A stretch of DNA of 64,000 nucleotides, taken from Octopus vulgaris (taxonomy: Eukaryota). Shown here piece after piece: positions 12,370 to 55,882 of this stretch. The notes beneath the pieces are model-generated. The model was given only the letters and a program-made list of their open reading frames with translations. It had not been told where the DNA came from and did not search any database. Both the position numbers and the translations under genes were made by a program. The DNA is taken from assembly GCA_951406725.2 (NCBI GenBank), contig OX597818.1, positions 31,248,001 through 31,312,000 of the forward strand, given 5' to 3'. How positions within the stretch are numbered: position 1 is the stretch's first letter; each line of letters starts with the position of its first letter.

Positions 12370-12379
<10 letters not shown>

Positions 12380-13351
12380 GGCTTAGTAAAATAAATTACT
12401 TTGCCGCATACTGAACTCATTAGAAATAGCAGCTAAAAAAACTTTTTTAAAACTATTTCCAATACTTAAAGAAAATCTCTCTCTCGTATAGTGTTTGCTC
12501 AATTCAACTCACGAAAGTATGAGGGTAGAAACATTAAAAAATCAAATGCAAAGGTTATTTGAGAACGTACGTTTCAAGATTAGTCAAAAACGACACTTCT
12601 ATCATCAGCTCAGAACTCCCTGGTTTGGATTTGAAAACACTGAAAGTAGGAGCATACCTTTTCGGCTTCCCATCGCCTCTGAAGATCTACTCGAAACTAA
12701 CAGTGCCAGCAAATTCAAACATGCAAGCGAAGAATTTCTGCTCTCCCCTTCCACCAGCGTGGGTTAAAATCAGCAAACAACATGCTTTTTTTCGGTAAAA
12801 TCCGAGGCATTAAATAGAGAGAGATGAATTATAATTTCAACAATTGAGGGTAAAATTAATTAATTAATCAATTTCACCAAGGGGGAGAGCAGAAATTCTT
12901 CGCTTGCATGTTTGAATTTGCTGGCACTGTTAGTTTCGAGTAGATCTTCAGAGGCGATGGGAAGCCGAAAAGGTATGCTCCTACTTTCAGTGTTTTCAAA
13001 TCCAAACCAGGGAGTTCTGAGCTGATGATAGAAGTGTCGTTTTTGACTAATCTTGAAACGTACGTTCTCAAATAACCTTTGCATTTGATTTTTTAATGTT
13101 TCTACCCTCATACTTTCGTGAGTTGAATTGAGCAAACACTATACGAGAGAGATTTTCTTTAAGTATTGGAAATAGTTTTAAAAAAGTTTTTTTAGCTGCT
13201 ATTTCTAATGAGTTCAGTATGCGGCAAAGTAATTTATTTTACTAAGCCCTTTTATATAATGTAATAATTTGAATTCGTCTTAAATGGTCCCTTTTGCATA
13301 CTGAATACTTGGTGAAATTGATTAATTAATTAATTTTACCCTCAATTGTTG

Positions 13352-13359
<8 letters not shown>
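12370..13359. mobile_element. Young non-coding fold-back element with a hammerhead in each arm (retrozyme or non-autonomous PLE), inserted in (TA)n
   Basis: Inverted arms 12370-12748 / 12882-13258 differ, as far as I can see, only by a CT slip; second inverted pair 12830-12881 / 13308-13359; (TA)n on both flanks. Confidence 0.8.
13018..13070 (+). ncRNA. Type-I hammerhead motif (mirror copy on minus strand at 12560-12612)
   Basis: tgag-CTGATGA-tagaagtgtc-gttttt-gactaatctt-GAAA-cgtacg-TT-ctca; stem I tgag/ctca, ACGTACGT palindrome, GUU triplet; stem II has a U-U closing mismatch and an internal loop. Confidence 0.7.
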
Positions 13360-13382
<23 letters not shown>

Positions 13383-13385
13383 GAA

Positions 13386-13802
13386 TACTCTTTGAATATT
13401 TTACTTGTTTCAATCATTTGACTGTGGCCATGCTTGAGCACCATCCTTAGTCGAAGAAATCGACCACAGGGCTTATTCTTTGTGAGCCTAGTACTTATTC
13501 TATCTGTCTCTTTTGTCGAACCGCTAAGTTACGGGGACGTAAACACACCAGCATCGGTTGTCAAGTGATGTTGGGGGACAGACACAGACACATAAACATA
13601 TACACACGCAAACACACACATACACACATATATACATACGACAGGCTTCTTTAAGCTTCCGTCAACCAAATACACTCACAAGGCTTTGGTCGGCCCGAGC
13701 GTATAGTAGAAGGCACTTGCCCAAGGTGCCACGCAGTGGGACTGACCCTGGAACCATGTGGTTGGTAAGCAAGCTACTTACCACACAGCCACTCCTGCGC
13801 CT
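13386..13802 (-). mobile_element. Family-A SINE, full length
   Basis: Reverse complement begins aggcgcaggagtggctgtgtggtaagtagcttgcttaccaaccacatggttcc (A/B boxes). Confidence 0.92.
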
Positions 13803-14156
13803 ATATGTATATAATTCTTATATATATATGGCTTGCAAGATAATGTGAATTCGTGTGTTGAAGTAAATTTTGTTCTGGCTAGGGACAGTTATGTTAATAT
13901 AATTAATACACACACTGGTTCAATTCCACCCCTTTTCTTTATTATTTGTCAATTGGTTAAATATCCAGAGAACTAATTTTGTCAAACAACAATAAAATAT
14001 ATTAGTTGGTTGGATATTTAACCAACTGAAATATTCTCTGACCAAAGTTCGCGAAGCGTCTTGAAATGGCACATTTCATGCACCATGACACAAGAGTAGT
14101 GGTGAATTTTGGTAAAAATTTAAAAAGAAGGAAAATTCACTGAAATTTTACGTTCG

Positions 14157-14204
<48 letters not shown>

Positions 14205-14213
14205 GTATATATA

Positions 14214-14445
14214 TACTCTTTTACTCTTTTACTCTTTTACTTGTTTCAGTCATGTGATTGTGACCATGCTGGAGCACCGCCTTTAGTCGAGCAAATCTAA
14301 CCAGGACTTACTCTTTGGAAGCCTAGCACTTATTCTATCGGTCTCTTTTGCCGAACCGCTATGTTACGGGGACGTAAACTCACTAGCATCGGTTGTCAAG
14401 CGATGTTAGCGACAATCATATACGCACAAACATATACACACACAT

Positions 14446-14496
<51 letters not shown>

Positions 14497-14669
14497 CACA
14501 TATACGACGGGCTTCTTTTCAGTTTCCGTCTACCAAATCCATTCACAAAGTTTTGGTCGGCCCGAAGCTATATTAGAAGACACTTGCCCAAAGTTCCATG
14601 CTTTGAGACTGAACCCGGAACTATGTGGTTGGTAAGCAAGCTACTTACCACACAACCACTCCTACGCCT
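14214..14669 (-). mobile_element. Family-A SINE, full length
   Basis: Same head, body and (tactcttt)n tail as the other copies. Confidence 0.92.
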
Positions 14670-14933
14670 ATATATATATATATATATGTAGGTTGTCAAA
14701 GAGTTCATACGTCAGATAAAAATGCACTCGTATATTTGTATATCTGTCAATAGACTGGGTATATTATCCGAAGGATACACTATTATATCATTATTGTTGA
14801 CCTTACCAATATCGGCAGTAATGGATATATAATACTGTACACTTCAGATACTACACACATACACATACACGCACGCGCATGCACGCACATGCACGCACGC
14901 ACGCACACACGCACACAAACATACACACACATA

Positions 14934-41289: not shown

Positions 41290-41565
41290 AATACCTCCTT
41301 CTCTTGAACTCTCCTTTCTTTGAAGGAACTTTTTCTTCACCCATTCCCTTCCGGTCATTTCAATATGTGACCGCGTGTGTATCGTTGGCGATTTTCTTTC
41401 TCCGTCTTCCCTTCTTTGGATTTTTTCTATATTTCTGATGAAGAGCTGTGCTCGAAAAGTGAAATCCTCTTTCTTTTCTTTCCTTTCCTGAGCGTCCACT
41501 AACACTGCACTTATTCCACGTCCTCGCGTTGTTGTTTTTTCTTACTTGTTCATGTTTGGATTGAG
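41290..41565 (+). mobile_element. PLE pLTR-type repeat with hammerhead motif at 41431-41465
   Basis: attt-CTGATGA-a-gagc-tgt-gctc-GAAA-ag-TG-aaat followed by cctgagcgtc; related to 12030-12290. Confidence 0.7.
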
Positions 41566-44692: not shown

Positions 44693-45020
44693 TGTGTTTA
44701 CGTCCCCGTTACTTCGGCAAAAAAGAGACCGATAGAATAAGTACTGGGCTTACAAAAAATAAGTCCCGGGGTCGATTTGCTCGACTAAAGGTGGTGCTCC
44801 AGCATGGCTGCAGTCAAATGACTGAAACAAGTAAAAGAGTATATATATATATATATAGGGAGAGTGTACAAAACAAACAGATGTATTAGTATAGCGCTCA
44901 AGAGTAGAAAAAGTCTTTTACGTTTTGAGCCTACGCTCTTCTGCAGAAAGGGACACAGAAAAAGACAAGGAGAGAAACAAGGAAGGAAAATATGTGTTGT
45001 GATTAACGATCTATCATGGC

Positions 45021-55646: not shown

Positions 55647-55670
<24 letters not shown>

Positions 55671-55677
<7 letters not shown>

Positions 55678-55882
55678 CGGGAAGCTTTATGAAAATAAAC
55701 AAAAGACGAAGGCAGGTGGAGTACAAACAAACAATTGTATTAGTATGGCGTTCAGGAATATAAATAAAACAAGTCTTTTACGTTTCGAGCCTACGCTCTT
55801 CAACAGAAAGATACACAGAAAAGAAACACGGAGAGAAACAAGGAGAGAAAAAAATGCGTGCAGAAGCTAGCGATTCAACATG
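55671..55882 (-). mobile_element. Solo PLE pLTR repeat with CUGUUGA hammerhead (55774-55811)
   Basis: Close reverse-complement match to 12078-12296; abuts (TATG)n at 55471-55675. Confidence 0.85.

Follow-up and report, generated by a model that had tools for sequence, protein, structure and literature searches.

The locus at 12370–13359 in the 64,000-nt stretch of Octopus vulgaris DNA analyzed here (the window) quite probably represents an insertion of a multi-copy, non-coding, 560-nt hammerhead tandem repeat, likely a non-LTR retrozyme, which was copied into a (TA)n tract by the reverse transcriptase (RT)/GIY-YIG protein of a Penelope-like element (PLE), with both cut strands primed at two internal sites of the unit, i.e., a "tail" site T and a "short" site S, likely on one circular or multi-unit RNA. 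We are highly confident that the element is real, PLE-dependent, and non-autonomous. The locus was described in the original prediction as a fold-back element whose arms are circular permutations of one monomer, A-C-B on one side and B-D-A on the other, and this geometry was borne out. Three perfect inverted pairs are present (12478–12748/12882–13152, 12370–12483/13145–13258, and 12830–12881/13308–13359); starting at 12882, the plus strand runs A(377)-C(49)-B(52), and, starting at 12881, the minus strand runs B(52)-D(81)-A(379); the segments A-C-B-D sum to 559 nt. The B copies are identical between the arms and the sole difference between the two A copies is one GA/CT dinucleotide unit, just as the single CT slip claimed earlier. 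Unit numbering (1–559) in this work starts at 12882 and follows the order A-C-B-D. The 559-nt circle deduced from the two arms is the actual repeat period at other loci. Both flanks are indeed (TA)n (12336–12375 and 13356–13382), and the predicted lack of a credible ORF was also confirmed: no frame between stops exceeds 91 aa, and this one and the next longest (86 aa), both on the strand opposite the hammerhead, gave zero Pfam family matches. An ATG frame of 31 codons after site T was considered as coding and rejected, being closed early in older subfamilies. The general description of a young, non-coding, TA-targeting, hammerhead-bearing element is supported. The features of the locus are collected in Table 1.

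Table 1. Features of the hammerhead-bearing insertion and its surroundings (positions in the window).
Feature	Position	Strand
Neighboring PLE of another family, 5'-truncated and stop-interrupted; GIY-YIG frame 10946–11434; hammerhead-like motif near 12161–12195; start approximate	10640–12335	+
Left (TA)n target tract, common to the 3' end of the neighboring PLE	12336–12369	
Left arm, 512 nt, B-D-A, unit 427–559 then 1–377; outer end is site S	12370–12881	-
Putative hammerhead motif, mirror copy; core at 12608	12558–12615	-
Segment D, closes the unit; left arm only	12749–12829	-
Head-to-head junction; zero added bases, ≤2–3-nt microhomology to the unit bases preceding A	12879–12885	
Right arm, 478 nt, A-C-B, unit 1–478; outer end is site T	12882–13359	+
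Putative type I hammerhead motif; core 13022–13028 and 13055–13058; U.U at 10.1–11.1; short stem III with palindromic loop; predicted cut after 13066	13015–13072	+
Conserved predicted stem-loop domain around site S; one compensatory pair	13210–13307	+
"Tail" (C+B) between S and T, ~96–101 nt, at one insertion end only	13259–13359	+
Right (TA)n target tract	13360–13382	

The assembly (2.8 Gb, 227 contigs) was searched for further copies. A 24-mer of the unit has 2,063 exact matches genome-wide, the hammerhead pattern has 1,619 genome matches, and 6,020 matches at ≤3 mismatches were obtained for a 26-mer lying immediately before position 382; the reversed control gave 0 in each case. With 12882–13359 as the query, 138 matches were found at the best 40 of 1,532 candidate places, mostly at 96–100% identity and with a spacing of ~559. 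The locus is one among thousands of units of a dispersed family, and the concern that it might be single-copy sequence is answered by the exact 24-mer matches and by the tandem copies elsewhere. Units are ~545–570 nt long and occur in tandem arrays, frequently head-to-head; this period and a GC content of 21–38% by segment are those expected of a non-LTR retrozyme at the sequence level. Identity to the unit of the present locus ranges from 99% down to 74% across the fetched loci, with old subfamilies at 74–85%. Briefly, four sets of loci were read. Set A consists of the 40 best places, the present locus included, and is biased by its query toward T ends; set B consists of all 50 loci behind the first 100 listed 24-mer matches (3 common to set A), its word lying upstream of both S and T; set C adds 16 further loci among the first 100 hammerhead-pattern matches; and set D holds 20 hand-picked further loci, mostly single matches, which were read by eye and kept outside the statistics. 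One locus with several elements, cut at the fetch edge (L048), was left out of the set A counts, and another (L100) out of the arm comparisons; two set C loci end in N, of which one was scored at a single end and the other is unscored. Within this small part of the family, no ORF is joined to the unit at any fetched locus, and in particular no RT plus GIY-YIG ORF between repeats as in an autonomous PLE. Upstream of the unit there is, at every fetched locus, another unit, the inverted arm, or flank, and never a PLE frame. By the Pfam result for the two longest frames and the zero count of unit-joined ORFs, the unit is non-coding, and it also appears to have no LTR-type termini, as expected of a retrozyme. 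Five loci (L187, L189, L192, L196, and L198) share one identical short inverted unit (402–478 reversed + 247–379), four of them with the same TACA-rich flanks; it seems that one old insertion was multiplied as a passenger of another repeat. At L187 two of these short inverted units form a palindrome.

The outer ends of the insertions, read on the hammerhead strand, join (TA)n at S (~377–389) or at T (~474–478), ~96 nt apart, and they are paired one of each. In set B every one of the 31 simple inverted loci pairs an S end with a T end, and so does one complex locus; a single arm is present at 17 loci (9 ending at T, 8 at S), and the remaining locus has two elements. Under independent end choice, 31/31 has P ~4e-10. 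Among the 26 inverted loci of set A, 23 are S+T, 1 is T+T, and 2 are T+other, and among the 11 of set C, 9 are S+T and 2 are T+other. Please note that the one T+T locus violates the end rule, as does one tail+tail pair of an autonomous PLE (see below). Variable permutation points had been expected from the original prediction; this stood for the inner 5' ends, which vary and are scattered around the whole unit, and failed for the outer 3' ends, which are fixed at the two sites. The inner ends do not pile up at the predicted ribozyme cut site (5/138 vs 3.2 expected). S and T both terminate in TATA, the same as the target; the TATAT near 262 in the family majority is never an outer end in our sets, indicating that site choice needs more than microhomology. 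The hammerhead strand and the insertion polarity are concordant. Fixed 3' ends, variable 5' truncation, an inverted 5' copy, and a tail at one end constitute the anatomy of EN+ PLE insertions, here with (TA)n as the microsatellite target, inside which a target-site duplication is unreadable. The S/T end pattern is a PLE insertion mark, and this end anatomy supports the earlier proposal of copying from a circular or multimeric template by PLE-type machinery.

Both arms of a locus derive from one haplotype or template. Arms range from 50 nt to ~eight units in length, and in 35 inverted loci, compared with 220 slippage-prone positions masked, the arms of one locus differ by 0.41% on average vs a median of 4.4% to other loci. 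Identical haplotypes often recur at other loci. Locus-private alleles are present on both arms in 7/56 cases and the remainder fits later mutation. At the present locus, segment C occurs in the right arm only and segment D in the left arm only, so that the template must have been longer than one unit or circular and a fold-back of the simple kind is ruled out. Among the S+T loci, the predicted cut site is traversed by 40/51 T arms and 34/51 S arms.

As to the form of this template, we lean slightly toward a circular rather than a linear multimeric RNA. There are 31 arrays with at least three long units, and 27 of them show single-unit substitutions or simple-run changes only, i.e., they are star-like, which is expected if all units arose together from one unit. 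The other four (L032, L041, L082, and L088) carry multi-unit variants, partly mirrored about the center; these are not given by a single monomer circle and indicate a mixed multimer template, fold-back, or later conversion. L041 is an 8-kb head-to-head array of ~15 units in which linked variants are mirrored about the center and others occur in one arm only. The main alternative, which we regard as possible and somewhat less probable, is that a linear, uncleaved multi-unit transcript of an existing array serves as the template; the element and the enzyme would be the same, a circle would be unneeded, and the ribozyme would be weak or used at another step. Such a template would account for the four arrays with multi-unit variants, in two of which (L082 and L041) linked variants stand in the same order on both arms, although conversion between arms can also produce mirrored variants. 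The Anolis PLE is reported to use uncleaved RNA in vitro (PMC11167929), and the near-perfect palindromic centers that we found at 16/51 loci (p 9e-9) could be two cDNAs running off one 5' end of a linear RNA. However, the star-like majority of the arrays and the constraint on the hammerhead (see below) speak against a linear template, and in a linear-only cycle internal priming with 5' truncation should shorten arrays in each generation, yet long arrays are found in several subfamilies.

Two primings, not fold-back, are in our judgment likely to be the main route of insertion. The arms at 13/51 S+T loci, the present one included, are not nested in one another, and hence neither can be a fold-back product of the other. 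The competing reading, one priming followed by self-copying of the folded-back cDNA with the second end fixed by the endonuclease or by target annealing, is improbable on the whole; it may account for a minority of loci. At the other 38/51 loci one arm is nested within the other; both this and the palindromic centers would likewise be expected of fold-back synthesis, and self-priming and EN-mediated resolution have been proposed for PLEs (PMC3846280, PMC8557442). Against this stand the 13 loci at which each arm has sequence absent from the other, and L075 and L113, at which a fold-back copy would pass T before ending at S.

A hammerhead-like core lies at unit position 141, one per arm, and is intact in 164/172 units. 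A type I hammerhead in A was part of the original prediction; its core, with U.U at 10.1–11.1, is present in both arms (Table 1). In Rfam the hammerhead was unrecognized at the gathering threshold, and only chance hairpin matches appeared at E up to 10. The paired cells of the hammerhead amount to 91.7% vs 27–45% in slid controls; covariation is no higher than in shuffles (104/500 as high). When the monomer circle is folded, the helices of the hammerhead come out as minor states (stems I and II ~0.2, stem III 0.04). A second hammerhead-like core on the antisense strand (12679) was rejected by inspection, having neither stem II nor a valid cleavage triplet. We defined lineage variants as those common to at least three loci. 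They occupy 2/57 hammerhead positions vs 78/338 elsewhere (p 3e-4) and 5/128 positions of the S-T region (353–480) vs the same 78/338 (p 1e-7), and single-locus variants are evenly spread, with no depletion in the hammerhead or S-T. Depleted lineage variants together with even single-locus variants suggest that the ribozyme and the S-T region are likely under selection while the element is being copied. In older subfamilies, changes are seen at the free positions N7 and H17, in the loops, and in one stem II pair, of which both partners are replaced. The old subfamilies at L194, L197, L199, and L201–L203 have A.A or A-U at 10.1–11.1, longer loops II and III, and a compensatory stem II pair; in these loci positions 330–480 are nearly unchanged. 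It seems reasonably likely that the hammerhead is active at least as a dimer. Palindromic stem III loops are described as permitting dimeric hammerheads (PMC4209133). In a Xenopus survey 1/9 predicted retrozyme dimers cleaved in vitro (Li et al., bioRxiv 10.64898/2026.07.22.740005), which means that the activity of the octopus hammerhead is not assured.

The predicted fold of the entire unit is more stable than those of shuffled sequences (z -6.4). In a consensus fold of 19 units, 99.4% of cells are paired, with only two compensatory pairs, the fold being derived from the same alignment. The predicted stem-loop domain around S is likely part of the signal recognized by the PLE protein. In a check for an A-to-I signature, lineage variants include 22 A>G vs 13 T>C, but 33 G>A.

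The element was originally placed directly against the 3' end of a PLE. The two do share a (TA)n tract; the PLE, however, belongs to another family, has its own hammerhead-like motif, and is unrelated to the unit, the similarity between them being not significant (39/200 shuffles as high). The terminal repeat of this PLE (12161–12335) contains the hammerhead-like motif and two similar end sites 45 nt apart, and pieces related to it lie at 55655–55882 and 44871–44990. Nearby PLE ends are likewise separate insertions in common (TA)n tracts, with similarity to the unit that is not significant. An isolated minimal hammerhead-like core of the PLE type is found at 41435–41457. At 13358–13813 and 14194–14680 are two copies, 79–90% alike, of a very abundant repeat beside (TA)n tracts, which we take to be SINE-like.

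An autonomous PLE beside L097, taken as an internal control for the end rule, is present in many near-identical copies, with RT-EN frames of 772–869 aa and an RVT_1 match. It ends in (TA)n at two sites ~43 nt apart, and among its inverted pairs 7/8 readable ones are tail+short and 1 is tail+tail, a ninth being unreadable. A young, abundant autonomous PLE at L166 and L167 (and L118–L147) has a CX4CX2C linker and is of Neptune/Nematis type by motif, following the classification in PMC8557442. Upstream, this PLE has a frame of ~490 aa that overlaps the RT-EN frame out of phase; its hammerhead-like core is degenerate, and its tail is 43 nt long. No homologous partner PLE was found by tblastn on the flanks of sets A–D, by reading up to 3 kb upstream at 17 single-match loci, or by aligning six PLE 3' ends. 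For these six ends, which cover a small part of PLE diversity, 11/200 and 37/500 shuffles scored as high as the actual comparison to the unit in the best cases. The terminal repeat of the L097-type PLE was considered as a homolog of the unit and rejected, since its motif-level resemblance failed against shuffles.

It is very unlikely, in our view, that the units are truncated terminal repeats of an autonomous PLE which later multiplied in place through unequal crossover. Such is the model put forward by Li et al. (bioRxiv 10.64898/2026.07.22.740005), and the variants spread locally among adjacent units in L041 agree with it. In the small part of the family sampled, however, no PLE frame is joined upstream of a unit and PLE pieces are separated from units by (TA)n or other sequence; moreover, arrays start and stop mid-unit at insertion-type junctions, and the arms are of one haplotype. 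An assembly or amplification chimera, which the absence of the locus's central junction among the short-contig matches listed might suggest, is highly improbable, as the end rule recurs with differing centers at >60 loci of a chromosome-scale assembly and the sequence is present in sequencing runs of 8 studies, part of the stretch being found in 20/24 listed runs, none of them labeled as RNA.

Our preferred reading, insertion by a PLE protein from two priming sites, can be put as a sequence of steps. Arrays would be transcribed on the hammerhead strand; the ribozyme, probably as a dimer, would cut the multimers, and the monomers would be ligated into circles. The PLE protein would then prime on both cut (TA)n strands, one at T and one at S, and each primed cDNA may continue beyond the ribozyme site for several units. 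Finally, both cDNAs would be joined head to head with little or no microhomology; one-arm insertions would be those in which the second cDNA was lost or very short. Points that count against this reading are the negative partner search among the PLEs sampled, the Rfam, covariation, and circle-folding results for the hammerhead, the spread of inner ends away from the cut site, the palindromic centers and nested arms, the four arrays with multi-unit variants, the exceptions to the end rule, the Xenopus dimers, and the in vitro behavior of the Anolis protein (see below).

Several parts of this picture are known from other systems. Animal non-LTR retrozymes (PMC7229834; bioRxiv 10.64898/2026.07.22.740005) are described as tandem repeats that are non-coding and low in GC. 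Each unit has one type I hammerhead, the dispersed copies range from monomers to multimers, the predicted fold is strongly self-paired, and PLEs co-occur; in all of this the octopus family is alike. The octopus unit is longer than the invertebrate retrozymes (170–400 nt) and lies within the range of the vertebrate survey (51–972 bp). In these publications circular RNA is demonstrated for coral, mussel, and axolotl retrozymes; for the octopus element a circle is a prediction. As for the individual ribozyme, the axolotl HHR_Amex2 (PMC7229834) also has U.U at the stem II base, a mismatch that the original prediction suspected of reducing activity, and a short stem III, the latter closed by a tetraloop. 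As a monomer it is reported to cleave to 22% within 1 h, and the dimer does better. The octopus hammerhead differs from it in a cleavage triplet ending in U (A in some subfamilies) and an internal loop in stem II; the two are likened by description, not by sequence.

EN+ PLE insertions are reported to have an inverted 5'-truncated copy, a 30–40-bp tail often at one end only, and a microsatellite preference (PMC8557442, PMC3846280). The Anolis PLE protein, once purified, is able to cut both strands and extend them, and its two internal start sites delimit the tail; in vitro, its start site shows no strand difference and its starts need no target homology (PMC11167929). The head-to-head inverted 5'-truncated copy, one-end tail, microsatellite target, and two internal starts of such PLEs (PMC3846280, PMC8557442, PMC11167929) are all found in the octopus element, which differs in having no ORF, a tail of ~96 nt vs 30–40, and two arms that may both be multimers. 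Unlike in the Anolis Poseidon reaction (PMC11167929), the octopus junctions share 4–6 nt with the target. The non-autonomous PLEs of Chlamys, e.g., MRC1 (PMC8557442), likewise depend on PLEs without coding for protein, and their insertions hold multiple copies head to tail. Elements of the MRC1 type match their autonomous partners at the 3' end and are mostly devoid of hammerheads; for the octopus family the search for such a partner was negative among the PLEs sampled.

Circles as templates and PLEs as candidate machinery were proposed by Cervera and de la Pena in 2020 (PMC7229834). Li, Clavereau and Pollet in 2026 link retrozymes to PLE pLTRs by co-occurrence and homology and favor local amplification (bioRxiv 10.64898/2026.07.22.740005). 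The published retrozyme–PLE link is thus one of co-occurrence and terminal-repeat homology, and that of the octopus family is one of insertion anatomy. The main texts of PMC7229834 and of Li et al. contain, as far as could be found, no mention of head-to-head or inverted retrozyme arrays, a one-sided tail, (TA)n targeting, or octopus. No cephalopod retrozyme paper was found in the openly searchable literature (supplements, subscription journals, and Repbase being outside this scope), and in the literature searched no retrozyme with PLE insertion marks was found described. The giant squid genome paper lists 235 Hammerhead_1 matches without analysis. At the level of sequence our unit answers to the definition of a non-LTR retrozyme and is best read as a PLE-mobilized one. 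The parts are individually known; what is new is their combination in a single protein-free family, together with the strict one-of-each rule for the ends, the length of the tail, and the evidence of arrays arriving ready-made.

These observations bear on questions posed in the published work, i.e., which enzyme mobilizes animal retrozymes and whether arrays are inserted whole or grown in place (PMC7229834; bioRxiv 10.64898/2026.07.22.740005), and how PLEs make inverted copies with a one-sided tail (PMC3846280, PMC8557442). The octopus family puts a PLE mark on thousands of protein-free units and delimits a conserved ~150-nt region around both ends; this S-T region offers the existing in vitro PLE assay a minimal RNA substrate, and the family is a natural data set for separating circular from linear templates. 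Read-through of head-to-head insertions would yield long, perfect double-stranded RNA. A bolder reading, which we put forward tentatively, is that a dimeric PLE protein rolls around a viroid-like 560-nt circular RNA with its two active sites obligately assigned to sites 96 nt apart, that each insertion is a ready-made head-to-head multimer, and that the family has persisted through many subfamily generations without a homologous autonomous parent while keeping the structural S-T signal and a dimer-dependent ribozyme. If this were true, the family would show directly, at the genomic level, that animal retrozymes retrotranspose by a rolling circle, and the inverted-repeat-plus-tail structure of PLEs would be explained.
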